From positions 416,001-480,000 of the forward strand of contig CAVSCK010000004.1 in assembly GCA_963726455.1 (NCBI GenBank): 64,000 bases of DNA, written 5' to 3'. The notes beneath the pieces were generated by a model that searched no databases, was not told the DNA's origin, and saw only the letters and a list, made by a program, of their open reading frames with translations. The number at the start of each line of letters is the position of its first letter. Positions within the stretch are counted from its first letter, which is position 1. Below are positions 26,201 through 54,349 of this stretch, one piece after another. The stretch comes from an uncultured bacterium (lineage in GTDB: Bacteria; Zixibacteria; MSB-5A5; CAIYYT01). Both the position numbers and the translations under genes were made by a program.

Positions 26201-26574
26201 CAGACAGTGCTCGGATAGACGACGGAATACTCACGGCGTTCGAGGTTTCGGGCATGAATCTTCAAGCTACGCAACTGGTCGTGCTTTCGGCCTGCGAGAC
26301 CGGTCTGGGAGAAGTGAAGGCCGGTGAAGGTGTGTACGGACTGCGCCGTGCATTCCAGATGGCAGGAGCGCGCACGGTAATTAGCTCGCTATGGCCGGTG
26401 CCCGATCAGGCGACAGCCGACGTGATGAGTCAACTCTACGGGCTTTCGAACAAGCCGATTCCAGAGCGCCTCCGCGATTTGCAGTTGGCGCAGATCAAGA
26501 AACTACGGGCCGCGGGCTCTCCTGATCACCCGTTTTCCTGGGGCGCATTTATCGCCCTTGGAGATTGGCGCTAA
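23284..26574 (+). CDS. Signal-peptide TPR-CHAT (caspase-like, clan CD) protease #1
   Basis: AGGAGG RBS, signal peptide ending ASA-E, 42-aa TPRs (LGPEHPDVAxSLNNLA), catalytic HLATHG and LSACETG, HPFSWGAF. Confidence 0.92.
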   Translation: MRLPRLSALVTALVILVVYVPASAESWQDLLSRADSLSKAQSQDSAIVIGRLALEKTQSQFGGNDTATARVLYRLGTYNYTKRSFGQADSLYHQALTIREEILGKDHPDVATAVSGLGILYMTQGRYADAGPLLKRALDIREKALGEDNADVGQSLNDLAVLSWYQGKLGDAELLFRRALAIREKALGPEHPDIGSTLNNIGILCFNQGRYAEAEPLFKRSRAIWEKALGPEHPNVAQSFNNLASLYGAQGKYAEAEPLLQRSLAIREKTLGQGNPKVAETLNNLGLLCYYEGEYATAEKHFRRALAINEKAQGPEHPDVAYSLANLSMLQWSQGRYDEATLVSQRALAIWEKAVGPDDPRVANCLNMLGVLLGEQRKYPEAESLMQRALAIEEKTLGPEHYEVGTGLYNIASLLAKQGKYAEAEPLYQRSLKIREKALGPGHPNVAYCLTEIATLDYYQGKYSEAEPLYQRSLAILEKAQGPAHPDVAATLESLSKLHRVEGKIALSFQESATALKTRLKHFQDNAYVLTEKDALKYSRSMRTSADNFLSTYHDFVKAGHSEAAQAAEIAVMTKGQVSDMIFERRKALVTETDSTTLALADSVRTNQFLLSKLYVSGPDEYDTSGTYRHKLDSLSVLNKRLESDLARESSSFQKFKSNREVTAAELLSLLPEKSMLVEYVKYNYLQLKPDSSTPRYLAVVFAPKREPVITDLGQAAEIESLVRRYREHMLLVSRANRLPTVVDLEDYRQVSTQLYDKIWRPIENQTRSNQEVFISPDDALTMVSFAGLPDPSGKYLTERFTIHYLSAGRDLIRLQEMPEASRGLLAMADPDFDALPASRVSSSFALQSGDTAATSYAMRSIRSSCGTLSESTADPLPGTRSEVQRIVSQWEKSSEEPVAVYYGAQASEDNFKSGAPGRRVIHLATHGYFLEGACQPEVSGGRLDEESGFVGENPLLMSGLLFAGANLHGEGADSARIDDGILTAFEVSGMNLQATQLVVLSACETGLGEVKAGEGVYGLRRAFQMAGARTVISSLWPVPDQATADVMSQLYGLSNKPIPERLRDLQLAQIKKLRAAGSPDHPFSWGAFIALGDWR

Positions 26575-26577
26575 CTA
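26353..26577 (+). repeat. 225-bp near-identical direct repeat (second copy at 29491-29715)
   Basis: 3' ends of both CHAT genes. I count 6 mismatches, all synonymous. Confidence 0.9.
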
Positions 26578-26598
26578 TTCGACATCTCTTATGTATTT
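26572..26598 (+). promoter_or_regulatory. ECF-type promoter motif upstream of CHAT #2
   Basis: TAACTAT-N13-TGTATTT, the same spacing as four other copies. Confidence 0.55.
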
Positions 26599-26667
26599 AG
26601 AAGAGGATATTGGAGACTTCGCAGGCCAAGCTATGAATAGAAGTAGTTTAAATGAAAAGGAGGGAGC

Positions 26668-29600
26668 TTGAAATTGACAAGGCGGCTAGCGATTCTACTT
26701 GGAATCATGATACTGGGTCTGCAGATGCCCGTCTCGGCAGAAACATGGAAGGATCTCTTGGATCGTGCCGATTCTCTGGCGAGTGCTAGAAATCAGGATT
26801 CGGCGATTGTTATCGGTAGACTTGCCCTCGAAGAGACGAAAGCTGAATTCGGAGGCAACGATACAGCGACCGCCAGAGTGTTCAACCGGCTCGCAGTCTG
26901 CTATTTCTACAAGGGAGCTTATGACCAAGCCGATACCCTATATCACGGGGCCCTGGCAATTTGGGAGAGAGTACTAGGTCCGGATCATCCAAGTGTAGCG
27001 AACGGTCTGAGCAATATTTCACTGGTCTATTATTGCCAGGCGCGCTATTCCGAGGCCGAGCAATGCGACATGAGGGCGCTGGCGATTCGAGAGAAAGCTT
27101 TTGGTCCTGATCATCCGGACGTGGCGACAAGCTTGACTGCCCTTGCCAGCCTCTATGTTGAGCAAGCACGTTATGCAGACGCGGAGTTGTATTACAAGAG
27201 AGCCTTGGCAATTCGGGAAAAAGCTTTCGGTCCGGAAAATAAGGATGTGGCGGCAAGCTTGAATAATCTCGCCACAGCTTATTTTCGAGAGACACGGTTT
27301 GCCGAAGCTGAGCCGTTGTTCAGGAGAAGTCTGGCGATTTGCGAGAAGATTCTGAGTCCTGATCATCCGTATATACCGAAGTTGTTGAGCAACCTCGCCG
27401 GTATTTATAATGAATTGAGGCGGTATGCCGAAGCTGAGCAGGCGTTCAAGAAGGTGTTGGCGATTCAGGAAAGAGCCGTTGGTCCGGATCATCCGGATGT
27501 GGCAACTAGTTTGTTTAACCTCGCTAATGTGTATACCCGGCAGGAACGTGACGCCGACGCCATACCACTGTACAAACGAGCGCTGGAGATTCGGGAAAAG
27601 GCTCTCGGTCCGGATCACCCAGATGTGGCGACAACCTTAAGCTGTCTGGCTATGGCTGATTATTACCTGGCACGCTATTCTGACGCAGAGCCGTTACTCA
27701 AAAGGGCGCTGCAGATTCGGGAAAACACTCTCGGGCCGAATCATCCCGACGTGGCTTTGAGTCTGAATGATCTCGCCATGCTTTACACTTACCAAGGGCG
27801 TTACGCAGACGCTGAGTCACTGTATCAGAGAGCGCTGGGGATTGAGGAAAAGGCCTCTGGTCCGGATAATCGAGATGTGGCATACTTTCGTGAATCCTAC
27901 TCCACCCATTATCGCGTCACGGGACAATTGGGACCGGGAATTGCGGAGGCGGCGAAAGCATTCAATATTCGCCTGAAGAACTTCCGTGACAACGCGTATA
28001 TTCTTTCCGAAATGGATGCTCTGCCATACTCCACGGAAATAAGGAATGATTGCGGCAGCTACCTTTCGTGCCTCTTGGATAATGGAATGTCAGCACCGGA
28101 GTATCTTGGACAGGCAGGAAATATCGTTCTCGAGTCCAAGGGAATAGTCTCTGAAGGCATTATGCAGCGACAACAGGCCCTGGTGACAGAAAAGGATTCA
28201 ACCACTCTGGCGTTGGCAGAGTCATTGCGAAGCGCTCGGCTGCAAATCTCTCAACTGTACAGTGAGGGCCCTGGGGACGATACCACCGGCTTATACAGAA
28301 GTGAAGTTGATTCCCTGGCTCGAATTGCCAACGACCTTGAAGCAGAGCTATCTCGTCATAGTGCCAGTTTCCAGCGCCGTCAGGATGTGAACAACATATC
28401 GGTTGCTCGTATCGATTCCGTTCTTCCGTCTAGTACGTCACTCGTTGAGTATCTGACATGGGATTATCACCAGTTAAGGCCCGATTCCTTAATACCGCGC
28501 TATCTGGCATTGGTTATTGACAAGGGTAAGGGTCCGAAGATCATCAACCTGGGTGACGCCTCGGAGATTGAGCCACTGGTAGGTCGTTACTTGAAGCACA
28601 TGCAAGGGATTGCCTCAGGAGGCCGGCAGCCGAATGCCGCTGATATGTTGGAGTATCGGTCCCTCAGTCAGTCCATTTACGAAAAAGTCTGGAAGCCCTT
28701 GGAGAATCACCTCCGAAAGGGACAGAGAGTCTTTGTAGCACTTGACGGTTCCCTGAACTTAGTATCGATCGCTGGACTCATGGACGAGAAGGGAACCTAC
28801 GTGACGGAGAAGTATATTCTTCATCATCTTTCCTCCGGTCGTGACCTGATCCGGTTGAAGGATCAGGGCGTTGAAGGACATGGTCTACTCGCGATTGGGG
28901 ATCCGGACTTTGACGCGTCCATTGACGCTAGGATGAACAAGACGAGCGAACCTCTGCTGGCAGCGGCACTTACAAGCGATACGGAATATCAAACCCGCAA
29001 CGTGCGGTCAGGGTGCGGTTCATTGTCAGACTTGAAGGTTGAGAGTTTGCCGTTTACTCGCAATGAGGTTCAGGAGGTAGGTCTTCTATGGCAGGGCAAA
29101 GGGAAAGATTCGGTTCAACTCTTTGTGGGCGCCCAGGCAACAGAAGATGCTTTCAAGACGCAAGCTCCGGGTAAGCGGGTGATTCATCTGGCGACTCACG
29201 GCTATTATCTGACCGGTCAGTGTGCTTCTCCGCTAGAGGCAAGACGCGGCTTAGGTTCCGACCAGGAATTTGTGGGTGAGAATCCATTGCTGCAATCCGG
29301 GCTTTTACTGGCGGGTTCGAATCTGCACGGGGCTGGCTGCGATAGTGCTCACTGTGAGGATGGTATTTTGTCCGCCTCCGAGGTTGCGGGTATGGATTTG
29401 AGCGGAACTGACCTGGTAGTGCTTTCAGCCTGTGAGACGGGTTTGGGAGAGGTGAAGTCAGGGGAGGGAGTTTATGGTTTGAGACGAGCCTTCCAGATGG
29501 CAGGAGCGCGCACGGTAATCAGCTCGCTATGGCCGGTGCCTGATCAAGCAACGGCCGACGTGATGAGTCAACTCTACGGGCTTTCGAACAAGCCGATTCC

Positions 29601-29712
29601 AGAGCGCCTCCGCGATTTGCAGTTGGCGCAGATCAAGAAACTACGGGCCGCGGGCTCTCCTGATCACCCGTTTTCCTGGGGCGCATTTATCGCTCTTGGA
29701 GATTGGCGCTAA
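26668..29712 (+). CDS. Signal-peptide TPR-CHAT protease #2
   Basis: TTG start with AGGAGG RBS. Same architecture as #1, with intact HLATHG and LSACETG. Confidence 0.92.
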   Translation: MKLTRRLAILLGIMILGLQMPVSAETWKDLLDRADSLASARNQDSAIVIGRLALEETKAEFGGNDTATARVFNRLAVCYFYKGAYDQADTLYHGALAIWERVLGPDHPSVANGLSNISLVYYCQARYSEAEQCDMRALAIREKAFGPDHPDVATSLTALASLYVEQARYADAELYYKRALAIREKAFGPENKDVAASLNNLATAYFRETRFAEAEPLFRRSLAICEKILSPDHPYIPKLLSNLAGIYNELRRYAEAEQAFKKVLAIQERAVGPDHPDVATSLFNLANVYTRQERDADAIPLYKRALEIREKALGPDHPDVATTLSCLAMADYYLARYSDAEPLLKRALQIRENTLGPNHPDVALSLNDLAMLYTYQGRYADAESLYQRALGIEEKASGPDNRDVAYFRESYSTHYRVTGQLGPGIAEAAKAFNIRLKNFRDNAYILSEMDALPYSTEIRNDCGSYLSCLLDNGMSAPEYLGQAGNIVLESKGIVSEGIMQRQQALVTEKDSTTLALAESLRSARLQISQLYSEGPGDDTTGLYRSEVDSLARIANDLEAELSRHSASFQRRQDVNNISVARIDSVLPSSTSLVEYLTWDYHQLRPDSLIPRYLALVIDKGKGPKIINLGDASEIEPLVGRYLKHMQGIASGGRQPNAADMLEYRSLSQSIYEKVWKPLENHLRKGQRVFVALDGSLNLVSIAGLMDEKGTYVTEKYILHHLSSGRDLIRLKDQGVEGHGLLAIGDPDFDASIDARMNKTSEPLLAAALTSDTEYQTRNVRSGCGSLSDLKVESLPFTRNEVQEVGLLWQGKGKDSVQLFVGAQATEDAFKTQAPGKRVIHLATHGYYLTGQCASPLEARRGLGSDQEFVGENPLLQSGLLLAGSNLHGAGCDSAHCEDGILSASEVAGMDLSGTDLVVLSACETGLGEVKSGEGVYGLRRAFQMAGARTVISSLWPVPDQATADVMSQLYGLSNKPIPERLRDLQLAQIKKLRAAGSPDHPFSWGAFIALGDWR

Positions 29713-29736
29713 CTAAACGCCCTTTCGCTTGTACTT
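29710..29736 (+). promoter_or_regulatory. ECF-type promoter motif upstream of the 29762 operon
   Basis: TAACTAA-N13-TGTACTT. Confidence 0.55.
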
Positions 29737-29761
29737 GGTTGAGGGGCAGATGGAGGAATCG

Positions 29762-30736
29762 ATGAAAAGTAGATACTACTCGAAGAACAATCGTACGAGT
29801 CGGAGCATCGCTTTGGTAGCATTGATGATCTTTGTTTCACTGGGGTCAGCAATTGCCCTGGGTGCAAACGAAGCCGCGGTCGCAAAGATAGTTGATTGCC
29901 AGATGCCGGTTTCGATCCACGGCCCGAAGTCATCTTCCGCAGTTATCGGCGCAGAACTTCACGGCAATGATACGGTCATGGTAGCTCAAAATGGTTCTGC
30001 CACGCTAGTGTTTGTTGACGGTGTGCTGCAGAAGTTCGTCGGCCCCAGTGTGATCATCATGTCATCAAAAGATAAGTCGGAACAGGGACTGCTGGGGAAG
30101 TTGGCAACTGGACTCGCGGAATTGTTCTTCCCAAGTGGCAGTGAAACCGAACGCGCGCGCCTTGCGGTCCGGGGTATAAATACTTCGGAAAAGCCGTCGC
30201 TGACGGTTCCGCTCCTCATGTTTCCGCCTTCGGGGGGCTTTCTGATGACTGCTCCCGATCATCTGGAGTGGCTGCCCATAGACAATGCGACTTTGTATAC
30301 GGTTTCTCTCTATGATCAGAATCGTCTCATATTCACGACACGAACGCACGATGCGATACTATCTCTTCCGGGAGACTCCCTTCCGTTAGAGGCCGGCCAG
30401 TCTTATTATTGGACTGTTCAGACAGACATCGGAAACGGTTCTTTGCGATCCGAGCAGTCAGCATTCGGAATGATCGACACTTTGAGTCACGCTACTGTGA
30501 TGAATGCTCTCAAAGAGATCAATAGTTCCGCTTTTGATTCACGATTGGCAACGGTGTTGCGGATCAACCTGTATCAAAGTCATGGCCTATTGGTCGATGA
30601 GAATCGGGAAGCCGACGATTTGCTCAGGCAGTATCCTCATGATTACACGGGATTGTTGGTGAAGGCGCAACTCTGCGAGGCGATGAACATGTATCGCGAT
30701 GCCGCATCCTATTATAGACAAGCGCTCGCGCGTTGA
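29762..30736 (+). CDS. Exported CHAT/CHASE2-associated protein (beta domain, AVRG linker, FN3/DUF928-like domain, TPR)
   Basis: GGAGG RBS, signal peptide, RLAVRG linker, LEWLP...YTVSLYD...LEAGQSYYWTV, terminal TPR helices. Confidence 0.7.
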   Translation: MKSRYYSKNNRTSRSIALVALMIFVSLGSAIALGANEAAVAKIVDCQMPVSIHGPKSSSAVIGAELHGNDTVMVAQNGSATLVFVDGVLQKFVGPSVIIMSSKDKSEQGLLGKLATGLAELFFPSGSETERARLAVRGINTSEKPSLTVPLLMFPPSGGFLMTAPDHLEWLPIDNATLYTVSLYDQNRLIFTTRTHDAILSLPGDSLPLEAGQSYYWTVQTDIGNGSLRSEQSAFGMIDTLSHATVMNALKEINSSAFDSRLATVLRINLYQSHGLLVDENREADDLLRQYPHDYTGLLVKAQLCEAMNMYRDAASYYRQALAR

Positions 30737-30742
30737 CGCCCG

Positions 30743-32650
30743 GTGACGAATCTGGCACACTTATATCGAAGACTATCCCGGTCGTTCCGTGCTGTCTTCG
30801 CGGTCATCGTGGGACTGCTTGTCCTGTCGCTGACAGCGCATTTTGGCTGGTTCGACCACCTGGAACAAAGACTATACGACATTGGCCTCAATCTTAAAAA
30901 CGCTCCGGTCTCCGGGTCCCAATGCGTGATCATTGCCATAGACAATGCCACTCTCGATAAGTGGTCGGGCCCTCGATTTCCCATCTCGTTGCACCTTGGT
31001 GAACTGACCCGCCTGGTGAAAGCACTCGATTCGGCCGGCGCGAGGGTAATCTGCATTGACCTCCTCTTCGATCGTCTAGAGGCCGCCAAACGCGAAGACA
31101 TCAGTTGCTTCGCCGACGCCTGCAAGAAGGCAGGCAACGTACTGCTGGCTTCTGCAGTTGAAGACACCAGCGACATTCTGGGCGATCGTTACAACTCGTC
31201 GCAACTAAACCTGCCGTGGCCGACTTTGAATGAAGCAGTCGCCGGAGTCGGGCTCGCAGATGTTCCCATTGATTTTGACGGAATGATTCGGCGTGTGGAG
31301 AAAACGGCACGTTTTCAGGGCGCGCTCCTGCCTTCACTTTCTGCGCAGGCAGTGGCACTATACAATCAGGACAATCTCGAAATTGCCTCTCAAGACAACA
31401 CGTACCTAATTGACTATTCCTGGCTCTCCAGGATAAAGACAATCTCAGCCCAGGATGTCATTGATGTGAGTGGTGTCGCCGAATTTGCGCGCGGCAAAAT
31501 CGCAGTGATCGGAGTGACTGACGACGGTGCCAATGATAGTTATCACGTTCCCATAAACTCAGCAAGTGGCAAACCACTTATATTACCGGGTGTAGTGGTT
31601 CACGCTGCCGCAGTGCAAAGTCTGCTTTCTGACAGGAAGATAAAACTCTCGTCTGCTCTAGTTAATCTGCCGCTCTTTGTTTTGGTAGCCGTCCCATTCG
31701 TATTCCTTTCCCAGGCGCGAAGGACGTGGATTACAGTTGCCTGCTACATGGCCGCTGCGCCATTACTCATAGTAGTTTCCGTTTTGGCTGTTCCCTTAAT
31801 GTATCTCATGCTACCCGTCATCAAGTCGCTTTTCAGTCTGGCGGTGGTTATTGGAGTTCAGATGGTTCTTGGGATTACACTCTTGCGTAGAGAAACGATA
31901 TCTCAACTTGCCGTGATCACGGAATTCAGTGAGGATATGCAATCGGCCAAAGTCATTCAACAGCATTTGCAGCCCCGAAATGTGCCTGTGCATCCAGGTC
32001 TCGAAATCGCTGCACTGCAATTGACCTGCAAAGAAGTCGGCGGCGACTATTATGACTTTGTTGAGTTGGAGAGAGGGAAGATCGGCTTTCTTATCGGAGA
32101 CGTCGCGGGCAAGGGAGTCTCGGCGTCTCTAATAATGTCCAACGTTCAGGCGATCTTCCGCAAGGAGGCTTCGCAACAGGAATCTCCGGCAGCCACGCTG
32201 AAAACCATCAACGCCCATCTTAGCACCTTAAGCAGCGCGTCCGGGCGCTTCATCTCAATATTCTACGGAATACTGGACCCGGAAACCCTTCGTCTCACTT
32301 ACAGTAATGGCGGACACTGCCGGCCGATTGTGCGCAACGCCGCTGGCAACGGCTACGAACTGGCTGAAGGGGGCCTCTTTGTCGGGCCGTTTCCCGATAT
32401 GGAATGGAATGATACGAGTGTACAACTCAGCCGGGGAGATCTGCTCTGTTTCTACACGGACGGGGTTTCGGAGGCATACGATGTTGGGGAGCGCGAGCAA
32501 TTCGGCGAGGAGAGAATTCTGGAATTCCTAAAGCAGACTACCGGCACGTCCGAAAAAGTTCTCCAATCACTGTTAGAGGCCTGTCAGTCATATGTTGGGA
32601 CTCGCCCCTTTGCCGACGACTGGACTGTAATCATATTGAAATTGAAGTAG
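30743..32650 (+). CDS. CHASE2 sensor fused to PP2C/SpoIIE phosphatase
   Basis: VIIAID, GARVICIDLLF, IDFDGMIRR, PGVVVHA (CHASE2). TM helices. VGGDYYD, IGDVAGKG, NGGH, YTDG, DDWT (PP2C). Confidence 0.9.
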   Translation: MTNLAHLYRRLSRSFRAVFAVIVGLLVLSLTAHFGWFDHLEQRLYDIGLNLKNAPVSGSQCVIIAIDNATLDKWSGPRFPISLHLGELTRLVKALDSAGARVICIDLLFDRLEAAKREDISCFADACKKAGNVLLASAVEDTSDILGDRYNSSQLNLPWPTLNEAVAGVGLADVPIDFDGMIRRVEKTARFQGALLPSLSAQAVALYNQDNLEIASQDNTYLIDYSWLSRIKTISAQDVIDVSGVAEFARGKIAVIGVTDDGANDSYHVPINSASGKPLILPGVVVHAAAVQSLLSDRKIKLSSALVNLPLFVLVAVPFVFLSQARRTWITVACYMAAAPLLIVVSVLAVPLMYLMLPVIKSLFSLAVVIGVQMVLGITLLRRETISQLAVITEFSEDMQSAKVIQQHLQPRNVPVHPGLEIAALQLTCKEVGGDYYDFVELERGKIGFLIGDVAGKGVSASLIMSNVQAIFRKEASQQESPAATLKTINAHLSTLSSASGRFISIFYGILDPETLRLTYSNGGHCRPIVRNAAGNGYELAEGGLFVGPFPDMEWNDTSVQLSRGDLLCFYTDGVSEAYDVGEREQFGEERILEFLKQTTGTSEKVLQSLLEACQSYVGTRPFADDWTVIILKLK

Positions 32651-33658
32651 TCACTTCTCTGACAAGATTAGGCGGCAGAGATCACGTCGGCTAAATCGTA
32701 GAAAGGGAGCCATGGCCAACTTGCCGGTTTGGCCAACGCTTTTCTCGAGAAACTTGAGCTCAATCAATTTGTCCTTGTCTTCCGATCCTCTGGGAACAGC
32801 CAGTCCTGCCTCGCGCAACAGCATTGCTCCTTTCGCACGAATGGATAGTTCCAGATTAAGTCTCAGGAAACACAGCATGTCAACGATAACATGTGCTTCA
32901 AATCGTCCCCGCAGTCTTTCCAGATAATTGCCGATGCGAGACTCGGACATGTCGCCGCTTGCAATGAGATCGAGTAGCTCCAACTCTTTGTCCAATCCAA
33001 TGCCCAGCCATCTGCGTGTCGCCTTCTCGCTTTCCGAAAAAACTATCACCGTCAACAGTGGTAAGATTGTCAACAGCACAGCAGTTGTTAGAACCGGAGG
33101 CAATATGAACTGATTGAACACAAAGTGAATCACAATTGCTGCCAATATACCCGGAATCAAGTTGGCCCAACCGAAAGACGGATACCTATCCAAGAAGCTC
33201 TTCGACATAAGCGCAAAAATTGCCATCGTGCTCCCGTGCATTGCGGCAGTCCCAAATCCTCTTACGATCCAGACCAATTGGCTGTAGTCGATGTACGCGA
33301 ACAAATAGGAGGCATTTTCGGCAAAGGCAAAGCCCGCGCCGACTGCGAAACCTTGTATGGCACTGTCGACCAGAAAGCCGAGCTTCCGTGCCCGCAGGAG
33401 ATAGACAACCCACACCGCCTTCAGAAGCTCCTCGACAAGAGGACTGACTTGCCTGACAAAATGGGATGGATCAAGCTTCGTGAAGTGGAGCAGGGTGGAG
33501 TTCACCAGATAGGCAAGGATGGCGACGAGACTTCCGACGAGCATGGACGTCAAGATCGCCCGGATTGATACGAGCTTGTAGCTATCCAGAAGAATCAGAA
33601 GAGTCAAGAAGGCAAGGACGGGCGCCAGGCTGAAGACAATGCTTAGGAAAGTGCTCAC
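32651..33658 (-). CDS. prsW: PrsW-family glutamic intramembrane protease #1
   Basis: Multi-TM. EELLK, FAFAEN, GTAAMH and IHFVFN motifs. GTG start. Confidence 0.85.
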   Translation of the reverse strand: MSTFLSIVFSLAPVLAFLTLLILLDSYKLVSIRAILTSMLVGSLVAILAYLVNSTLLHFTKLDPSHFVRQVSPLVEELLKAVWVVYLLRARKLGFLVDSAIQGFAVGAGFAFAENASYLFAYIDYSQLVWIVRGFGTAAMHGSTMAIFALMSKSFLDRYPSFGWANLIPGILAAIVIHFVFNQFILPPVLTTAVLLTILPLLTVIVFSESEKATRRWLGIGLDKELELLDLIASGDMSESRIGNYLERLRGRFEAHVIVDMLCFLRLNLELSIRAKGAMLLREAGLAVPRGSEDKDKLIELKFLEKSVGQTGKLAMAPFLRFSRRDLCRLILSEK

Positions 33659-33668
33659 AGCGCCGACA

Positions 33669-34445
33669 CTATTTTCCAGTACTCAGTGAGTCCTCGAACA
33701 GACCCTCAGCACTGACCAATCTAATCTTGAGATTCGACTCGGCGCTTTTTGTTTTGTCAAAAGTGAAGATATACTGATTCGTTCCATGATGCAGCAAGCG
33801 AATCTCATTTCGGCTCGCACTGAGTTCCTGATGGTGGGCTGAACTTTGAACGAACCCAGTGAAAACAAGGGCGAGTGAATCATACTGAAGCCGCACTTCA
33901 GCAGCGCCAGGCGCATTTACACTCAACTCTGCGGTCACGACACCCCGGCCGAACCTGGTCACAACCTCCCCCCGAATACCGTGCAATCCGATTTCCTTTC
34001 GCTCTGCAATTTCCAGATTGCCTTCCGGGCCTAGAACCATTGATCCTCTCATCTTGTCGAGCTCAGTTTGCCCCCTCTTGACGAATGTCTCCGGCATAAT
34101 TGCGAAAAGCAGAAATCCTACCAGAATTCCTCCCGCGACGCACAAAGTATACTTTACTGCCGGTCTGGGCTCCGCGACTCCAAATATTCTCCTGAACCAA
34201 CTCACCCTCCATGGGTGAGTCTCATGTATTGAACGGACCTGCAGCATCACGTCGTGCTTTAGATGCGTCGGTGGCTCCACCCCTTCTACTTGCTTCAACA
34301 TCATCGATACCTTAGTCAGCTCGTCCAATAGTCTCTGTGCCTCTGGAGTAACGCTAAGGTAGGACATCAAGTCCGTAAGTTCCTCCGGAGCTATGCTATT
34401 GTCAATCTTCTTATGGATCAAGACCAAGTACTTTTTGTCAATCAT
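33669..34445 (-). CDS. Transmembrane anti-sigma factor #1
   Basis: Start overlaps the ECF stop. Cytoplasmic LIHKKID...VEPPTHLKHDVM domain, one TM helix, periplasmic beta domain. Confidence 0.75.
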   Translation of the reverse strand: MIDKKYLVLIHKKIDNSIAPEELTDLMSYLSVTPEAQRLLDELTKVSMMLKQVEGVEPPTHLKHDVMLQVRSIHETHPWRVSWFRRIFGVAEPRPAVKYTLCVAGGILVGFLLFAIMPETFVKRGQTELDKMRGSMVLGPEGNLEIAERKEIGLHGIRGEVVTRFGRGVVTAELSVNAPGAAEVRLQYDSLALVFTGFVQSSAHHQELSASRNEIRLLHHGTNQYIFTFDKTKSAESNLKIRLVSAEGLFEDSLSTGK

Positions 34446-34986
34446 GAGTTTGTACGCCTCGCTTGACAAGTATGTCTCTTAACTGTTTCCTGGCCGAGAA
34501 CAGTCTTGACTTGACAGTCCGTTCGGGAATCTTCAGGACGCGGCCGATTTCCTCATAGGAGAGATCCTCAAAATGACGCAGGATAATGACCGACCTGTTG
34601 TCGGTGGTCAATTCCATGAGTGCCAATTGCACCGCGTCAGACAGCCGGCTCAACTCATACGATTTCTCGGGAGATTCGGAGTCTGGAGCTGACACTCCCT
34701 CGAGTGACTCAAAGTGGCGTTGCTGTTGCAGAAAATTGACCGCTTCATTAATGACTATTCGATATATCCAACTGAAAAATTTGAACTCGGGTTTGAATAA
34801 ATGGAGCTTCTGAAAAGCTTTGACAAAAGCAATTTGAGAAATGTCACATGCGTCATCACGACTGCCTATCATCCTGAACGCCACGTTGAAGAGAGGTTTC
34901 TGGTAGCGATCGACCAGTATCTCAAATGCATCCAGGTTGCCATCAATACATTCTTTCACGAGATCGGAATCGTCCCTTTCTATCAT
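34438..34986 (-). CDS. ECF RNA polymerase sigma factor
   Basis: DAFEILVDRY, DISQIAFVKAF, FFSWIYRIVIN, LSYEEIG, TVKSRLFSARKQL. Confidence 0.93.
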   Translation of the reverse strand: MIERDDSDLVKECIDGNLDAFEILVDRYQKPLFNVAFRMIGSRDDACDISQIAFVKAFQKLHLFKPEFKFFSWIYRIVINEAVNFLQQQRHFESLEGVSAPDSESPEKSYELSRLSDAVQLALMELTTDNRSVIILRHFEDLSYEEIGRVLKIPERTVKSRLFSARKQLRDILVKRGVQTHD

Positions 34987-35013
34987 AAGTACAATCTCGG
35001 CCTCACAAAGTTG
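34987..35013 (-). promoter_or_regulatory. ECF-type promoter motif abutting the sigma ATG
   Basis: CAACTTT-N13-TGTACTT-ATG. Confidence 0.62.
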
Positions 35014-35138
35014 ATCCTCGAAATCTCAGATAATGTAATGAACCGATCCGCTCGGCACACTCGAATATAAGGTCATCACAGGTGAATAAAGTAATCTTTT
35101 CGCCCCGCGCTGGCAACTGAGCGTTTCAGCGGCATATC

Positions 35139-35423
35139 TCACCGCCCGGTAAACAGTTTGTCAAGTCCGGCTATTCGAAAGATGGTCTGTATATGTTGGT
35201 TCAAATTTTTTACTTCCAGCGTCTTTCCCAGCGCCGTTAATCGCCGATAAGTCTCGACGATAACCCATAAGCCGGCACTGGAGATATATTCGAGCCGTTG
35301 ACAATCGATAGTGCCGGAATCATTGAGTTTCTCCAACACCTCGCGTGCGCGTTCGGTCTGCGCTGCATCGAATCTACCCACAAGATAGACTACGTTCCGG
35401 TCGCTTATCTCTATCGTAAACAC
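35139..35423 (-). CDS. STAS anti-anti-sigma factor #1
   Basis: LVGRFDA, LEYISSAGL (phosphorylatable Ser), IFRIAGLDKLF. Confidence 0.88.
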   Translation of the reverse strand: MFTIEISDRNVVYLVGRFDAAQTERAREVLEKLNDSGTIDCQRLEYISSAGLWVIVETYRRLTALGKTLEVKNLNQHIQTIFRIAGLDKLFTGR

Positions 35424-35500
35424 TCTAGCTTGGCAGTCTCTTTCGCAGATTAACTACGTTTGCACCATTGTAATACTTGTAAGAGAAACTGCAACTGGCT

Positions 35501-47375: not shown

Positions 47376-48431
47376 TCAAGTGTTATTGCGCCTGCGAGAG
47401 TCGTGTTGCGGGGATTCTTCCGCCCATTTGTCAAGCATGAATCGCTGCCAGAGGTCCTTGCTGCTGGAACGGAAGAAGGGCAGAATTGCCAGCCTACCCG
47501 TCTTGCCGATGCTCTTCTCCAGGTACTTCAGTTCCGCAAATTTCTCCACAAGTTGTGGCTCCGGAGAAACAGGCAAGCCGAACTCTCGCATGAGCAGTAT
47601 GCCTTTGACCTGTAAAGACAGCTCGAGTTGGAGTCGCACAAGACAAAGCATGTCCGCAACAACCTCACCTCGGAATCGGCTCTTTAATGATTCGAGGTAG
47701 GCACCGATCTTGGTCTGCGAGATATTGCCGCTACAGATCAGATCCAACAACTCCATGTCAGCATCCAAACCAATTCCCAGCCACTTCTGGGTGGCTTTCT
47801 CGCTCTTTTCGAACACGAAAATCACCAACAGAGGTAAGCAAATCAGCAGAATGACGGTCGATAACAGTGGGGAGATGAGAAAATTGTTATAGACGGCATG
47901 GACAAGGATTGCCAAGCACAGACCTGGAAGGAAAACAACAATTCTGTGGGTTTGGTGGCGATCTGACAGATACTTGGAAATCATCCCCAGTATCGCCGCC
48001 GTGCTTCCGTGCATGACCGCAGTGCCGAAGCCACGAACGACCCAAAGGAGGATGTTAGAATTCGTTAGGGCGTTCAGGTAATAGATGTTTTCGACAAGAG
48101 CAAATCCGGCGCCGACTGCAAAACCATAGATTGCCGCATCGACCAGAAATCCGATTCGCGTCTTTCGCAACAGATAGATGACATAAGCGGCCTTCAGTAG
48201 TTCCTCAGTCAGCGGTGCAATGTACGCTGCGAGATTGGACACGCTGAGAGAGAAAATCCGGGTCAGCCCGGTGTTGAGAAACAGGCCGACTACGGCAACA
48301 AGACAGCCTGCAAATATGGCCCTTGTTGCCGATCGAAGACTAACCAGCTTGTAGCTGTCGAGGAAGATCAGCACAGCCAGAAAAACAAACACGGGAACTA
48401 AACTGACGAATACTTTGATGAGCTCGGTCAT
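47376..48431 (-). CDS. prsW: PrsW-family glutamic intramembrane protease #2
   Basis: EELLK, FALVEN, GTAVMH, VHAVYN. 4-nt ATGA overlap with the upstream gene. Paralog of 32651-33658. Confidence 0.87.
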   Translation of the reverse strand: MTELIKVFVSLVPVFVFLAVLIFLDSYKLVSLRSATRAIFAGCLVAVVGLFLNTGLTRIFSLSVSNLAAYIAPLTEELLKAAYVIYLLRKTRIGFLVDAAIYGFAVGAGFALVENIYYLNALTNSNILLWVVRGFGTAVMHGSTAAILGMISKYLSDRHQTHRIVVFLPGLCLAILVHAVYNNFLISPLLSTVILLICLPLLVIFVFEKSEKATQKWLGIGLDADMELLDLICSGNISQTKIGAYLESLKSRFRGEVVADMLCLVRLQLELSLQVKGILLMREFGLPVSPEPQLVEKFAELKYLEKSIGKTGRLAILPFFRSSSKDLWQRFMLDKWAEESPQHDSRRRNNT

Positions 48432-51400
48432 AACACTTTGAGCGAAAACATCAGCTCGGTAGATGCCTTTTCTCCCTTTTCAAATGCCGCAGCATAACCC
48501 ACCGACATCGTCATGTTGAGGTGTGACAACATGATCAAGCGAAAATCCAGTTGCGAACCGACGTTCAGTAATGATCTTCTTACTTGTTCACTGTCGAAAT
48601 CAGTGACAATTCCCGTGGAGAACAGAGCCAACCTCAACCAGGTGCCAAACAGCGATGGCGTTCCAAGTCGTCTGAACCTGATGGGTGGGAGCGACCATTC
48701 CGCCATCAGCTTGCCATAGTTGATACCTCCGATAGCGTTTAGCTCGACTCCCGGAAAGCTGTAATAGGCTCGGTATCTCCTTTCCGACTGGTAATCTACC
48801 CAGTTGTTTCCAAAACCTCCAAAGTAGAATCTTGCCAGAGGTTCGATCCGATTACTTGGGGAAAAACCTGCAGAACTTCTGAACCAAATCGAAGAATGGT
48901 TTATGGGAAGCGGTAGTCCCCAGTCAAACTTGGTGAAGAACCGTGGAAATATCTTGCGGTTGACGAACTTCGCGTTGGCGGCAATTTGACACGAAAGACC
49001 TTTCTCAAAGTCGACTGCTCCGAGAGAGGATCTCTGATTGCTGAAAAAGAGAACTGAATTGACGGCGATGAATCGATCGTACGAGGTGGTCACATTCTGG
49101 TACTCTGGCAGCCTCTGCAAATCGCCATATCTCGTGACACCGAAATTGCAGTCCATCTGTTTGGGGCCGTCAGACAGCAGCTTCTTTTGGTATTTGATTC
49201 CGAGAGAATATCCTTTTCGGCTGGTCTTGGTCGGACCGAAGAGATCATAGAAATCAGCGGCGTTGTACGCCAAGTCTGCTTCCCAGTTCGAGTAGCTGTA
49301 CCTCCAACTTGCGTGAACTCTCTCACTGCGGGGCAAAGCTCCTCCGGGGCTGTATGAAACGGAAAGTGCCGAGTTGTGTAAGGCAATCGGGTCGGAAAGG
49401 CTGAGATGTACTCCCACGGCGGCGTAATTCTGATAGCCTTCGACAATCGGATAAGCCGACACGAGTCTGATGTTCTTCAGACCGGAATACCCGCCGGAAT
49501 GCGTGGTAAGCGAGTCGATATTTACTGCGGCTGGGGATCCGGCGAGCCAGCCGGTCACTTCGGGATATTTTTCGACAATTTGCTGGCCCAGGTAGACAAT
49601 GGCGCTTACGTCTTCAATGGGCTTGTTGGCTATCATCACGGGAGAAAAGCCGCCACCCGAAAAGCGAAATACAATTAACGAGTCATCGGAGATCGGGACC
49701 GGCCGGAAGAATCCGGTTTCGCAATTGCTCAGAACCTCCATGGAGTCCGTTTCGATTGAGTATCTGAATATGTTCGAAACGCCGGTATAGTAGGACGATC
49801 CGTAGAGATATTTCCCGTCGGGGGAAAAGACGAAGCCAGCTGGATTGCTGTTCTCAAAATTGTGGAGGACCTCGTAAGTAGTGTCGCCAGCCAGAATCTT
49901 CGCCGTCTCCATTTTGATTAGACGCTGGCTGCCGTCAATCTCGGCAAGCGCGGCGGAAAGAAGAGTACCATCAGGCGAAATATCAATATCATAGATATCT
50001 CGACCATAAGGCCACGAGTAAACCTGATTCCACTCCTGGTAAGGATAGGGGATTTTGACTATCGTTGAGATACCGTTGAAGTGCCTTACACCCCAAATGG
50101 ACTTGTCGGAGGAACTAAACGCCAAGTCGCCGATTCTTGCGTCCTTCAGAAGAATCCTTTTCCTTCCTGAGGCAATCTCAACGACATTGAGGTCCCGCCA
50201 TTCGTCGTTGTCGGTAGTGAAAAAGAGCTTGCCCGACGAGGCGTCGAAGGCCAGCGAAGCTGCGTAGAACAGTGTGGCCCCCTTAATCTCGCAGATCGGC
50301 TTGGAACTGCCGTCTTCGATGCGGATCCCTGCCAGATGGGCAACTTGCCCGGGATAGTTGACCGCAGCATACAATGTTTTCGTTGCAGGATCGAAGTAGG
50401 CCCGCGAAACCGAACCGAGAGGGTTTCGCGATAGCATTCTATATGGAGTTGTGGGATACAGGCGAATCGAATCGAGGTTGGCCGCTTGAAACTGTTGTTC
50501 CCATTGAATCCATTGTGACCAAGCGTCGTCAAGAGATAATCTGTAAGTCTTCCGAAATTGCGAAGCGAAGTAGCTTTTCGTATCCGGACCGCGGGACACC
50601 CACTTTACTAATAGTTGCGGACCATATTGGTAGGCCAGATAACTCATGAATCGCGTACCGTAAAGGTAGGAATTCACGCCCACCTGAAAGTCAATCTTCG
50701 TACCTTCCGATTCCAATCCGATCAAATCGTAAATGTGACTACTGTCACGGACAAGCGTTCGGAAAACCATCTCGTCGTAAGCTCCCAGAGCCCTTCCCAA
50801 ACCCCCCGCCATCCAGGTTTCCATGAATACGGCAATACCTTCGTGATACCATCTGGGAGCGGATCGACGAGGAGTCGTGAGATGACTATAGAAGATCGAG
50901 AGTGGGTTTTCCGAGGTTTCGCTTACCTTGCCTCGAAAGAGTGTCCTGAAGAATCTATCACTTCGGGATGCTTTGTCTCCGGCGATGATGTGAACGATCT
51001 CGTGATTCATGATGGCATTCATTCGCTCATTCGCCGGAGCTGTTTCGTACACGTAACTGATCGGTGCTATCGCAACGGATATGCGATTGTTGGGAGCCGT
51101 GCTGGCGCCGGCATTGCCATAATCACCAAGATCATGCAAGAAGACGGTGATCTTTTGCGACGGCGCGTAATTCCAGAATTTCTTATGGAATGCCAGTGAG
51201 TTCTCGAAACAACGGGCCGCATGGGGAACCAGGTAGGACTCCGCCTGGCCGTAATAGACCAGCCTCAAGTCTTTGGTCTCAAGTGAATACAGTTGCGCGA
51301 AGAGAGAAGGCGCCGTGAAACTAATAGCCAACAGAAAAAAGACTTTCACACGAAGACTGGTCGACAACCAGCGACTTGAATCAGGGTTTGAATACCACAC
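48428..51400 (-). CDS. Predicted outer-membrane protein: HExxH metallopeptidase, beta-propeller and C-terminal beta-barrel-like region
   Basis: Signal peptide. HEIVH...WYHEGIAVFME (gluzincin-like). ISPDG and FSPDGKYL propeller motifs. Amphipathic strands ending ELMFSLKVL. Confidence 0.72.
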   Translation of the reverse strand: MWYSNPDSSRWLSTSLRVKVFFLLAISFTAPSLFAQLYSLETKDLRLVYYGQAESYLVPHAARCFENSLAFHKKFWNYAPSQKITVFLHDLGDYGNAGASTAPNNRISVAIAPISYVYETAPANERMNAIMNHEIVHIIAGDKASRSDRFFRTLFRGKVSETSENPLSIFYSHLTTPRRSAPRWYHEGIAVFMETWMAGGLGRALGAYDEMVFRTLVRDSSHIYDLIGLESEGTKIDFQVGVNSYLYGTRFMSYLAYQYGPQLLVKWVSRGPDTKSYFASQFRKTYRLSLDDAWSQWIQWEQQFQAANLDSIRLYPTTPYRMLSRNPLGSVSRAYFDPATKTLYAAVNYPGQVAHLAGIRIEDGSSKPICEIKGATLFYAASLAFDASSGKLFFTTDNDEWRDLNVVEIASGRKRILLKDARIGDLAFSSSDKSIWGVRHFNGISTIVKIPYPYQEWNQVYSWPYGRDIYDIDISPDGTLLSAALAEIDGSQRLIKMETAKILAGDTTYEVLHNFENSNPAGFVFSPDGKYLYGSSYYTGVSNIFRYSIETDSMEVLSNCETGFFRPVPISDDSLIVFRFSGGGFSPVMIANKPIEDVSAIVYLGQQIVEKYPEVTGWLAGSPAAVNIDSLTTHSGGYSGLKNIRLVSAYPIVEGYQNYAAVGVHLSLSDPIALHNSALSVSYSPGGALPRSERVHASWRYSYSNWEADLAYNAADFYDLFGPTKTSRKGYSLGIKYQKKLLSDGPKQMDCNFGVTRYGDLQRLPEYQNVTTSYDRFIAVNSVLFFSNQRSSLGAVDFEKGLSCQIAANAKFVNRKIFPRFFTKFDWGLPLPINHSSIWFRSSAGFSPSNRIEPLARFYFGGFGNNWVDYQSERRYRAYYSFPGVELNAIGGINYGKLMAEWSLPPIRFRRLGTPSLFGTWLRLALFSTGIVTDFDSEQVRRSLLNVGSQLDFRLIMLSHLNMTMSVGYAAAFEKGEKASTELMFSLKVL

Positions 51401-51512: not shown

Positions 51513-51544
51513 GGAGACGCCGCGACCGTAGCCGCAACATCTCC
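51513..51544 (-). other. Intercistronic RNA hairpin with C(UACG)G tetraloop
   Basis: Minus-strand GGAGAUGUUGCGGC-UACG-GUCGCGGCGUCUCC, 14 bp including four G-U pairs. Confidence 0.7.
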
Positions 51545-51585
51545 CCCGTAGCATATCATCCCGGTTACTGGCGGGGTCAGTATCC

Positions 51586-53019: not shown

Positions 53020-53081
53020 TGCAACCTCCTATGAATGGACGTGAATTACCGGGGTTACCTTGTCCCCAAACTTCTTTTACC

Positions 53082-53108
53082 AAGTACAGTTCAGTTCTCT
53101 AAGAGTTG
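53082..53108 (-). promoter_or_regulatory. ECF-type promoter motif upstream of the repeat-protein operon
   Basis: CAACTCT-N13-TGTACTT, about 60 nt upstream of the ATG at 53019. Confidence 0.65.
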
Positions 53109-53147
53109 GTCAATCTTTCATTTCCTCCTCGCTCCATTGCCTTTTGA

Positions 53148-53936
53148 TCAGTGAGAGTGCTGTCTCGTATATAGAGTTTCCTCCCAAGAATCATCAGATG
53201 AACGAACGCGAAACTGCATTGCCGAGATATCATTGCTCTTGTCCTTGAAGAGGAGGAAATATTTCTCCTCCCCGTCCTGCGTAAGTCGGACTTGATTCTC
53301 GTTAATCTCCAATGTCTTGGGGACGTGACCTAGTTGTCTCATACCCTCAAGATCGAGATGTCGATTGTCAAAACTGATAGTCACCTCGACACCTCTGTTC
53401 GAAGTCAGATCTATCTCGGCGATGACAGTTCCCGTTGAATATTCTATCCTGACCGTGCCTTCAGCATTTCCGATTGTGAAATCTATCTGATCAGCAACCT
53501 GAACGCTGTCGACGGCGCCGCCCAGATAGATCGAACCAGCCAGACTGCGAATATTCCAAGGAGGGATTACTCCGATGCTGCCGACGAGCAGAGCAAATGA
53601 GAAGATGCCTACGACTATGCCCGCCAACAGGGAATAGGCATACTTGACATTTACCTTGAGGGCTAACGACCCGACGACGGACTCAGGAATGCCGCGATTC
53701 TTTCTCCCCGCGGATCCCTCAGCTCGAACCTGTCGCAAGACGGCGTGTTTCAGCTCCATGGGCGGATCTGCCTTTTGCTCCTGCGCCAACCATCGGAAGA
53801 GTTGGAGGAAACTGTCATATAGCATTTGCGCGTCAGGGTTTCGTCGGAGATACTCCTGCAACTTGAGACGTTGTCTGGGTTTGATCGTCCCATCAAGATA
53901 CTCACTCATAAGTCGAACATGTTTTTCGGAAGTCAT
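53148..53936 (-). CDS. Transmembrane anti-sigma factor #2
   Basis: LMSEYLDG...PDAQ...DPPMELKHAVLRQVR, one TM helix, periplasmic domain. Paralog of 33669-34445. Confidence 0.78.
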   Translation of the reverse strand: MTSEKHVRLMSEYLDGTIKPRQRLKLQEYLRRNPDAQMLYDSFLQLFRWLAQEQKADPPMELKHAVLRQVRAEGSAGRKNRGIPESVVGSLALKVNVKYAYSLLAGIVVGIFSFALLVGSIGVIPPWNIRSLAGSIYLGGAVDSVQVADQIDFTIGNAEGTVRIEYSTGTVIAEIDLTSNRGVEVTISFDNRHLDLEGMRQLGHVPKTLEINENQVRLTQDGEEKYFLLFKDKSNDISAMQFRVRSSDDSWEETLYTRQHSH

Positions 53937-54322
53937 CGGCCACCGTTCCCCTCTGTTTCACGGCTCGCTCAGCTAGCGTTTGGCGGTGAAGAGCCTTGAC
54001 TCGACGTTCTTCAAGAGAAATCTCAGTAAGTGAACAACCGTTTTGAGCGAGAAACCGTCGAAGTGCCTGACGAAATTCAGGACCTTCAGTTAGGTTGGCA
54101 GACCCCTCGCGCAATCCGGACGCCCTTACTTATTTCGTTGCCGACACGGTCTTCCTCCGGATATTTCGCCGCAGAGGCCCGGCCCTCGGCAAACTCTTGG
54201 CCTCCGATCAATCTCACCGGCGAGTTGACAGACGGTCTCCGTCATCCACCCAACATCTCAATTGACTTCAAATTGCCGTCAAGCCACTCCCTGATCATGA
54301 TGGGATCACCGTTGTCTGTCAT
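53933..54322 (-). pseudogene. Decayed ECF sigma factor
   Basis: Fragments in shifting frames: MTDNGDPIMIREWLDGNLKSIEML, VRLIGGQEFAE, VRHFDGFS, VESRLFTAKR*, KQRG. These match the intact sigma at 34438-34986 over about 390 bp versus 549 bp. Confidence 0.8.
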
Positions 54323-54349
54323 AATTACATTTGATCCCCCGAAAAGTTG
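54323..54349 (-). promoter_or_regulatory. ECF-type promoter motif abutting the pseudo-sigma ATG
   Basis: CAACTTT-N13-TGTAATT-ATG. Confidence 0.62.

Follow-up and report, generated by a model that had tools for sequence, protein, structure and literature searches.

Two diverged sigma-factor modules and a candidate extracytoplasmic function promoter motif in the genome of an uncultured member of the Zixibacteria

The DNA considered here is a stretch of 64,000 nucleotides (nt), henceforth ‘the window’, from an uncultured bacterium of the Zixibacteria (GenBank assembly GCA_963726455.1, contig CAVSCK010000004.1, positions 416,001 to 480,000 of the forward strand). The subject is a two-block, promoter-like motif, AACT-N15-TGTA-N-TT, along with the gene for an extracytoplasmic function (ECF) sigma factor, sigma1, which is the putative reader of that motif. 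The window contains two old, diverged copies of what can be described as a sigma module. The short one consists of STAS1, sigma1, anti-sigma 1 and PrsW1, and holds the sole intact sigma gene. The long one has lost its sigma, with both of its promoters, its anti-sigma (anti-sigma 2), an RsbW-like kinase, STAS2 and a target operon nevertheless kept, i.e., an operon for a repeat protein, a 990-residue exported protein (p990) and a second PrsW-family protease. Also present is a block of genes for two TPR-CHAT proteases, an exported protein and a CHASE2-PP2C phosphatase (Table 1). Gene calls throughout are from our own open reading frame (ORF) maps, with genomic context based on a crude one of 2,991 ORFs (87% coding).

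The motif is matched six times within the window, versus 0.08 matches expected, and none of 100 shuffles got to six. Across the whole 3.64-Mb genome there are 14 exact matches, of which six lie in one 31-kb cluster of the window. The eight matches outside of this cluster all fall within ORFs, these of 223 to 1040 amino acids (aa), whereas the six cluster matches are intergenic or overlap no more than a stop codon, a TTG start that is itself doubtful, or an ORF of 120 aa that is spurious. Each of the six points toward a downstream gene. A first-pass annotation of this DNA had listed five copies by eye, all with identical spacing and each upstream of a gene in the sense orientation, and in this it was correct: a pattern scan of the window returned the same five coordinates and strands, and the ORF map the same orientations. 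The exhaustive scan recovered as well a sixth copy, at 23012-23037 (- strand), which had been overlooked. Distances from site to next start are 0 nt for sigma1 and for the sigma remnant, 62 nt for the repeat protein, 69 nt for CHAT2, and 26 nt for the ATG of the exported protein, where a GGAGG site is present. The sixth site, by comparison, is approximately 900 nt upstream of an SBBP/dockerin gene, with no convincing ORF between the two.

A two-block weight matrix was also employed, based upon 137 sites from other genomes (76 before sigma genes and 61 before targets, the training sites having been chosen using soft motif criteria), and with it 7.28 million genome positions were scanned. This matrix was used in place of an earlier, 10-site version that had penalised the local TGTACTT variant. 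Four sites are strong, with all four within the five best matches (ranks in Table 1; 28.3 bits at 54323 and 20.9 bits at 23012), and the two best matches genome-wide are the two promoters of the module with the dead sigma. The CHAT2 site has rank 20 (13.4 bits, of which the -35 block supplies 3.9) and the exported-protein site rank 298 (6.5 bits, with the -35 block at -5.3). Among the top 25 matches, six are both intergenic and no more than 200 nt upstream of a same-strand ORF or of the sigma remnant, and five of those six are in the cluster, CHAT2 included. What the first-pass annotation had taken for a weaker copy ahead of CHAT1 is noise, with about 211,674 genome positions scoring equally well or better. 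Two further matches may be recorded. That of rank 4, C4:1295235-1295264 (+), at 21.2 bits, is also an exact pattern match and lies antisense within a 555-aa ORF, as could be due to chance or instead could represent an antisense promoter. That of rank 13, C5:475326, precedes a 166-aa ORF that overlaps a longer ORF on the opposite strand.

Table 1. Sites and genes of the window, with coordinates as counted from its first nucleotide.
Feature	Position	Strand	Basis or remark
Intact-sigma promoter, TCAACTTT-N13-TGTACTT, ATG directly after	34987..35013	-	Pattern; matrix rank 3
Intact ECF sigma, 182 aa (sigma1)	34438..34986	-	Pfam Sigma70_r2, r4_2, Sigma70_ECF; TIGR02937
Membrane anti-sigma 1, one transmembrane helix	33669..34469	-	Weak NF052375; aligns with post-sigma gene of other loci
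PrsW-family membrane protease 1	32651..33658	-	PF13367, 65.2 bits versus cut-off 23.5
STAS anti-sigma-antagonist-like protein 1, YISSAGL motif	35139..35423	-	Pfam/NCBIfam
Decayed-sigma promoter, CCAACTTTTCG-N10-TGTAATT, then ATG	54323..54349	-	Pattern; matrix rank 1
Sigma pseudogene remnant, 386 nt versus 549; stop after 26 codons	53937..54322	-	tblastn
Anti-sigma 2, intact, 262 aa, own sigma lost	53148..53936	-	Weak NF052375
Repeat-protein operon promoter, CCAACTCT-N13-TGTACTT	53082..53108	-	Matrix rank 2; same place as second motif of other loci
Membrane-anchored repeat protein, 477 aa	51586..53019	-	Repeats such as ANPDFAKLLA, NPEFSRLA; orthologues in other loci
990-aa exported protein (p990): HExxH domain, six-bladed beta-propeller, C-terminal beta-barrel	48428..51400	-	Invariant residues; model
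PrsW-family membrane protease 2	47376..48431	-	PF13367, 85 bits; orthologues close operon in 41/47 loci
STAS protein 2, YISSAGL motif	54649..54933	-	Pfam
RsbW-like serine kinase/anti-sigma, HATPase_c_2	54920..55339	-	64.8 bits versus cut-off 27.4; sole one in window
Sixth strong site, ACAACTTTTCG-N10-TGTATTT	23012..23039	-	Pattern; matrix rank 5
SBBP/DUF7948/dockerin protein, start Met with GGAG at 22105	19721..22105	-	Possible target of sixth site
Candidate weak promoter before CHAT2, TAACTATTCG-N10-TGTATTT	26572..26598	+	-35 overlaps CHAT1 stop codon
Marginal site before exported protein, TAACTAAACG-N10-TGTACTT	29710..29736	+	-35 overlaps CHAT2 stop codon
TPR-CHAT 1 and 2	23284-26574, 26668-29712	+	CHAT, 218.3 and 213.8 bits
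Exported 324-aa protein, weak DUF928 likeness	29763-30736	+	DUF928, 14.6 bits versus cut-off 26, E 0.029
CHASE2-PP2C phosphatase	30743-32650	+	CHASE2, 127.9 bits
SBBP/FG-GAP/dockerin protein, 1603 aa	Between STAS1 and GAF-PP2C
GAF-PP2C phosphatase	40330-41787	+	Relatives flank module in other genomes
Ser/Thr kinase-TPR (Hanks kinase)	41990-44440	+	Relatives flank module in other genomes
FG-GAP/dockerin gene	Between Ser/Thr kinase-TPR and PrsW2
‘Weaker copy’ before CHAT1: not a site	23205..23231	+	-18.4 bits

Among 40 related genomes, six carry a sigma1 orthologue (46-52% identity), and in all six that gene is preceded by cCAACyTT-N13/14-nGTAnnT, with free spacers, and then ATG or GTG at once. 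Gene order in these relatives is STAS, sigma, anti-sigma, repeat protein, 990-aa protein and PrsW, which is that of the window module with the dead sigma. The motif is found as well before the repeat-protein orthologue in all four of the relatives with contiguous sequence (G038, G007, G009 and G026). In G014 it is found instead on another contig (G014:C5:743), 2.1 kb upstream of the p990 gene. A 13-position pattern matches one to four times per genome in those five relatives, versus zero to two times for a reversed-pattern control, and in four of the five there are two matches at the locus. The pattern misses the sigma-upstream site of G014 because the spacer there is 1 nt longer, with the single G014 match thus being the one upstream of p990. 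The p990 gene itself is found in seven of the 40 relatives, i.e., the six sigma carriers plus G023, where only 640 nt of contig precede it. Three same-genus genomes (84, 96 and 100% complete) possess only sigma paralogues, at 39-40% identity, and p990 is absent from them as well.

A wider scan, of one genome per species and with sigma alignment, yielded 80 loci that were kept (44-54% identity), out of at least 523 stretches encoding relatives. Most of the scanned genomes are metagenome bins with loose taxonomic labels, and groups were taken from record titles plus tree lineage labels. So counted, the loci span at least 11 phylum-level groups, including Zixibacteria, Ignavibacteriota, Bacteroidota, Chlorobiota, Calditrichota, Acidobacteriota and Gemmatimonadota, and further Eisenbacteria, Latescibacterota, Krumholzibacteriota and Gammaproteobacteria (Woeseiaceae, Chromatiales, Lysobacterales). 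Usable sigma upstream regions have AAC-N17 (67) or AAC-N18 (9) and then GTA in 76 of 78 cases, with one of the two remaining having GTC instead of GTA. The consensus is aCCAACtTTTy for the -35 and yTGTAnkT for the -10, with a core of AAC-N17-GTA. Some columns of this consensus are partly by construction, as the site picker required AAC and GTA and favoured flanking C and T. Columns outside of those criteria include C two bases before AAC (71/76) and T third after AAC (65/76).

A second site, AAC-N17/18-GTA, is present in 60 of 71 loci, every one of them with a site beginning CAAC, at 1.0 to 1.8 kb downstream of the sigma start. The search covered 800 nt starting 1 kb past that start, for which chance, by our own arithmetic, supplies about 0.4 minimal matches. 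The 11 loci lacking a second site include all seven of the short form, that is, sigma and anti-sigma followed directly by PrsW, these short-form loci (7/78) being scattered. The motif is kept at orthologous loci in two places, before sigma and downstream of anti-sigma. Where flanking sequence sufficed, tblastn found STAS in 67 of 75 loci, the RsbW-like kinase also in 67 of 75, PP2C in 28 of 64, p990 in 40 of 48 and PrsW in 41 of 47, with the repeat protein found in 38 of 62; the low PP2C and repeat-protein counts may reflect divergence. An adjacent ORF of 200 to 320 aa stands beside sigma in 67 loci.

Loci differ as well in their details. A motif copy precedes a Ser/Thr kinase-TPR gene at L101:5426 and directly precedes PrsW at L088:1307, both of these being loci without the long operon, and the regulon seems to be rewired between lineages. 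Upstream of PP2C there is a second, longer STAS protein in one locus (L054, 3327-3827) and a nucleotide cyclase-like protein in another (L049, 3312-3977). The input side of the module, that is, varies between loci.

Given these observations, it is likely that the motif is the cognate promoter of a widespread ECF sigma family, present in two copies per module in most genomes, and that sigma1 drives the four strong sites. Of the candidate regulon put forward in the first-pass annotation, what stands is an ECF-type promoter linking the sigma gene, the pseudo-sigma and the repeat-protein operon, with this link conserved in orthologous loci. What lacks support is the place of the CHAT proteases as core members, as considered below. 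What can be seen directly are the sites, along with how often they occur, how well they are conserved and which domains the proteins contain; from these we infer the identity of the sigma, its proteolytic release and a partner switch.

Sigma1 carries just ECF regions 2 and 4 (PF04542, PF08281, PF07638) and scores 99.3 bits with TIGR02937, versus a cut-off of 42.9. The likely start of anti-sigma 1 is the ATG at 34445, which overlaps the sigma stop and has GGAG upstream. Matches of the two anti-sigmas to NF052375 are weak, 19.9 and 27.8 bits versus 100. The sigma remnant of the long module is real: tblastn aligns it with sigma residues 1-44 (E 3.7e-5, with a stop) and, in another frame, with residues 136-167, i.e., region 4 (E 3.3e-4). 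Duplication of these modules was not recent, as the module proteins are as distant from each other as from orthologues of other phyla. In a sigma tree, a quick version only, sigma1 is on a long branch at an unresolved fork, apart from a same-family pair (L057 and L076; Shimodaira-Hasegawa-like approximate likelihood ratio 99). Because sigma1 does not group with that pair, the tree weakly suggests that it was the vertically inherited copy that died. At the second module's edge, a transfer RNA gene, 55580-55665 (-), adjoins the gene for the RsbW-like kinase; in other genomes this place is taken by PP2C, and the transfer RNA gene may mark a point of insertion or truncation.

The now sigma-less anti-sigma 2 might instead hold sigma1. 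Modelled together, sigma1 and the anti-sigma 2 N-terminus score 0.82, versus 0.32 for the best control, with an interface that spans sigma regions 2 and 4, contact agreement between runs of at least 94%, and a predicted local distance difference test (pLDDT) value for the partner of at least 77. The mark used for such scores is reached by 58 of 80 solved complexes and by 2 of 110 mismatched pairs. This result speaks nonetheless to likeness rather than to binding, as the sigma/anti-sigma class includes solved structures and close cousins also pass.

Certain observations weigh against this overall reading. A look-up of sequencing runs for positions 26000-35999 of the window, RNA or otherwise, returned none. 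That sigma1 reads the other module's promoters is inferred, and the modules are old: identity between them is 47% for STAS, 25% for anti-sigma and 50% for PrsW. Sigma1 is under the SigW equivalog cut-offs (NF007223 and TIGR02948, 111.5 versus 209 and 99.8 versus 243.1), and PrsW1 is far under that of the NCBIfam PrsW equivalog NF033739 (35.3 versus 225). Lastly, the sixth site is followed by approximately 900 nt, 22106-23011, without a clear gene, a sequence that is unique in the genome. There, tblastn with all cluster proteins returned nothing; the ORFs look spurious, with none of them searched in a protein database. Rfam likewise found nothing, its only hit being a transfer RNA elsewhere. 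No sigma-70-like promoter was seen in it, and its three terminator-like hairpins are near the shuffle expectation of 1.6. The region could be a long SBBP leader, an unknown RNA or decayed genes.

The SBBP/FG-GAP/dockerin surface proteins of which the possible target of the sixth site is one are found at 17001-19037, 19721-22270, 35501-40312 and 44506-47163, and number 38 to 88 matches per related genome (one query). Such proteins flank the sigma module in G009 and G014 as well. With the left flank gene a member of this very large family, synteny of the window flanks is unreadable. The right flank gene is single-copy.

Turning to the CHAT side, the first-pass annotation had supposed that a single sigma controls a ‘30-kb proteolysis-linked regulon’, one that takes in the CHAT module, the repeat-protein operon and both of the sigma modules. 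As extended to all six copies being functional, we consider this unlikely. The two CHAT-side sites do keep the exact spacing, have good -10 blocks (9.5 and 11.8 bits), and, like the two best local sites, show CG at a matching offset. Their -35 blocks, however, are equalled at 7,944 and 116,147 genome positions, have T where 137 of 137 foreign sites have C before AAC (though the 61 target sites had been selected with this C as a criterion), and have A second after AAC, a place held by T in all 76 sigma sites, although three target sites do show CAACTATT. There is also the question of how the two sites arose. CHAT1 and CHAT2 are 51% identical overall with their last approximately 90 residues identical, and at their 3' ends (26355-26577 and 29493-29715) about 220 nt are 97-100% identical, ending 3 nt past the stop, as looks like a recent gene-conversion tract. 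As both sites take their TAACT from a TAA stop and the CT that follows it inside of that tract, the two sites are one event and count once. The first-pass annotation had called the spacers unrelated. This is so for the four strong sites, flanks included, whereas the copies before CHAT2 and before the exported protein depend on one another. Past the tract, the next 35 nt are 66% identical (own count), which could mean constraint, with identity beyond that at background level. Starts with GGAGG follow the two sites at 69 and 26 nt, the CHAT2 site is among the promoter-placed top 25 matches, and the PP2C output of the CHASE2 protein could act upon the STAS proteins. Against these points, a search of the 40 relatives at E 1e-10 gave no homologue of the exported protein, a CHAT gene is found within 6 kb in only one of 80 loci, and there without the motif, and the CHAT-side sites are shared by none of the relatives. 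Individually, the CHAT2 site may be functional or not with about even chances, whereas function of the site before the exported protein and CHASE2-PP2C is doubtful. The conserved protease link, going by the orthologous loci, would be to PrsW plus the HExxH outer-membrane protein, not to CHAT.

To view the copies instead as leftovers of duplicated DNA, rather than as functional sites, is accurate for the CHAT pair, whose -35 elements lie in the near-identical tract, and might be extended to the sigma and pseudo-sigma sites as these precede paralogous genes. Yet the four strong sites show no relatedness in either spacer or flank, identity between the module proteins is just 25-50%, the 53082 and 23012 sites precede unrelated genes, and a two-block motif with free spacers recurs before orthologues in the phylum-level groups listed above. 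For the four strong sites this view is already contradicted, and as a general explanation it is very improbable. Hardly to be expected, too, is that some sigma other than the adjacent ECF sigma reads the motif. The genome does have several other ECF paralogues (33-40% identity), but the motif travels with the sigma clade (76/78 orthologues), the locus accounts for two of the two to four genome-wide matches in four of the five scanned relatives, and the three same-genus genomes are without both the sigma orthologue and p990.

If sigma1 is indeed the reader, then the module can be envisaged as follows. Its order in most genomes is RsbU-like PP2C, RsbW-like kinase, STAS, promoter, sigma, membrane anti-sigma, promoter, repeat protein, HExxH/propeller/barrel protein and PrsW. 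Sigma1 would drive the sites at 34987, 54323, 53082 and 23012, and perhaps also the weak CHAT2 site, and would be held at the membrane by anti-sigma 1 and probably by anti-sigma 2 too. Site-1 cleavage by PrsW, followed by the action of an M50 site-2 protease, would free the sigma, as for sigmaW and RsiW; an M50 protease is encoded elsewhere in the genome. The PP2C, kinase and STAS partner switch would represent an added, cytoplasmic input. The parts for such a switch are found together in the window (SpoIIE, 144.1 and 159.5 bits; HATPase_c_2, as in Table 1; STAS), there being two STAS proteins, two PP2Cs (one GAF- and one CHASE2-linked), one kinase and one Hanks kinase. The YISSAGL of both STAS proteins, containing the SSAG serine, presumably is the phosphorylated motif.

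Targets of the regulon are predicted to be envelope proteins. Of these, the repeat protein carries a membrane anchor at its N-terminus. In p990, residues H133, E134, H137 and E187, i.e., HExxH and a downstream Glu, are invariant in 37 orthologues. Its model (pLDDT 87.6, predicted template modelling score 0.86) displays a helical HExxH domain, a propeller, and a C-terminal barrel at 635-990. The propeller resembles TolB (Z 22.7, root-mean-square deviation (rmsd) 2.8, 240 aligned; Foldseek E 3e-9). Fold searches used the whole model and were dominated by the propeller, such that the resemblance of the barrel to D. radiodurans BamA (Z 19.2, rmsd 4.2, 287 aligned) comes from a list filled by propeller matches. 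Pfam gave neither an Omp85 nor an HExxH peptidase match to p990, and leads from the Atlas are PD40, Omp85 and Peptidase_MA_2, the last on 47% of one cluster. Probably p990 would be an outer-membrane, protease-like protein.

The position of the sigma start codon relative to its promoter deserves separate consideration. Exactly 3 nt lie between the A of GTA and the sigma start codon in 56 of 76 orthologues, and a direct check of that position finds ATG, GTG or TTG in 58 of 76. A Shine-Dalgarno-like 4-mer is upstream of the sigma start in just three of 76; neighbouring genes show GGAGG. No alternative in-frame start is found in the seven sequences examined, all of which begin M-x4-D-x2-(L/I)-V. 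A start codon at this place is specific to sigma promoters, that is, it is absent from target promoters. The 61 target promoters display instead a pyrimidine at +8 (47), a purine at +9 (41) and a purine at +10 (55), with a pyrimidine-purine step ending at +9 in 36 versus nine for the reverse. In sigma promoters +10 coincides with the base that opens codon 3; 57 of 58 have a purine there, and the pyrimidine-purine step outnumbers the reverse by 38 to 1, though the +10 purine could there reflect a conserved Glu or Lys codon. As an observation in its own right, in a Krumholzibacteriota/Latescibacterota clade (L063, L074, L083, L095, L096, L099 and L102) the start is found about 5 nt further from the -10, e.g., TGTACGTCTCCC and then ATG, as would suit an ordinary leaderless start.

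One way to read this arrangement is as a leaderless sigma mRNA whose 5' base would be that with which the start codon opens (A or G), only 4 nt beyond the A of GTA, and thereby as positive autoregulation. Leaderless ECF promoters are described from Actinobacteria in Todor 2020 (PMC7776599), and the abutting of start codon on -10, the scarcity of Shine-Dalgarno-like sequence or other starts, and the restriction of this ATG or GTG to sigma promoters all speak for this reading. Against it, ECF promoters usually have the geometry AAC-N17-GTA, initiation just 4 nt past GTA would place AAC at approximately -26, target promoters carry the +8/+9/+10 signature, and the purine at +10 is nearly universal in sigma promoters. 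An ordinary leaderless start, moreover, is what five loci of one clade, with 8 nt between GTA and ATG, instead fit. We view a leaderless start at the abutting codon as a possibility, if one that falls short of probable. The flipped base of the -10 is taken here to be the third of GTC or GTA. In ECF geometry the start site is counted from the flipped base and is 9 to 10 nt after it, as described in Todor 2020 (PMC7776599). Given a start codon 3 nt after GTA along with that usual geometry, a sigma-dependent transcript would begin at codon 3 and would be unable to encode sigma, which argues against simple positive autoregulation. Tentatively, then, and with doubt, the sigma start codon may be sited within the discriminator, with the induced transcript starting at codon 3 and carrying anti-sigma, which has its own ribosome-binding site (a GGAG in the window), but no translatable sigma. 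Feedback would then be through anti-sigma, absent positive autoregulation, and sigma itself would come from the upstream kinase-STAS transcript.

With these observations, an ECF sigma clade that recurs in at least 11 phylum-level groups, for the most part represented by metagenomes alone, is given a concrete promoter along with a minimal regulon. They point to three control devices in one module: a partner switch, an anti-sigma of the membrane that comes with a PrsW of its own, and a target that is protease-like and of the outer membrane. They also describe two modules in one genome in which one sigma decays without the loss of its promoters, anti-sigma and targets, to which the other sigma presumably attends, and the tight contact between -10 and start codon raises the question of whether this sigma induces itself at all. 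The parts are of known kinds: ECF sigma, group-specific promoter, membrane anti-sigma, PrsW-type release and partner switch. What appears to be new is a module of fixed make-up, found across many phyla, in which sigma would control both PrsW and the HExxH/propeller/barrel protein, as well as promoters and an anti-sigma that outlive their sigma, and a start codon inside of the discriminator. Literature searches on ECF with CHAT/CHASE2, on ECF with PrsW and antagonist, and on CHAT/CHASE2/DUF928 turned up no account of this module. In PMC7826278, on the classification of ECF sigmas, the main text mentions none of PrsW, STAS, CHAT, ‘leaderless’ or ‘Nitrospir’, and its supplements may already define the group and its motif.

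Several known systems invite comparison. CHAT, CHASE2 and DUF928 families associate with one another (an association that we did not find in a paper), and like such clusters the window has a block in which a CHASE2 sensor is encoded together with both TPR-CHAT proteins and with the exported protein, whose likeness to DUF928 is weak. Unlike in those clusters, CHASE2 is here fused to PP2C, and the block adjoins an ECF module and bears weak promoter copies.

With B. subtilis sigmaW, RsiW and PrsW the resemblance is closer to the heart of the module. An ECF sigma gene is in both cases followed by that of a single-pass membrane anti-sigma, with PrsW-family and M50 proteases available. The core AAC-N17-GTA matches what we take to be the sigmaW consensus, TGAAAC-N16-CGTA. 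That string is not found in the main text of PMC3498285, in which PrsW of B. subtilis is described as the site-1 protease for RsiW, with RasP having a role alongside. Unlike in the sigmaW system, PrsW is here encoded by the module itself, mostly within the sigma-dependent operon, the -35 is CCAAC rather than GAAAC, and a partner switch plus two large envelope proteins are added.

The partner switch in turn is like that of RsbU, RsbV and RsbW, i.e., of the sigmaB type, in its SpoIIE PP2C, HATPase_c_2 kinase and STAS protein with SSAG serine, all beside a sigma. In the sigmaB system, however, the kinase is itself the anti-sigma of a group 3 sigma, whereas here a separate membrane anti-sigma follows an ECF sigma. 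BtrS of Bordetella is an ECF sigma, and as with Bordetella btrS-btrU-btrW-btrV, partner-switch proteins are encoded next to the sigma. BtrU, BtrV and BtrW act in the control of type III secretion, as described in PMC8256260.

Lastly, as with autoregulated ECF groups (Casas-Pastor 2021; Todor 2020), a group-specific pair of -35 and -10 elements is conserved before the sigma gene and a few neighbours, phylogenetic footprinting of such promoters being the method of Todor 2020 (PMC7776599). Unlike those groups, the start codon is in most orthologues (the 56 of 76 noted above) within the discriminator, and one module's promoters have outlived their sigma.

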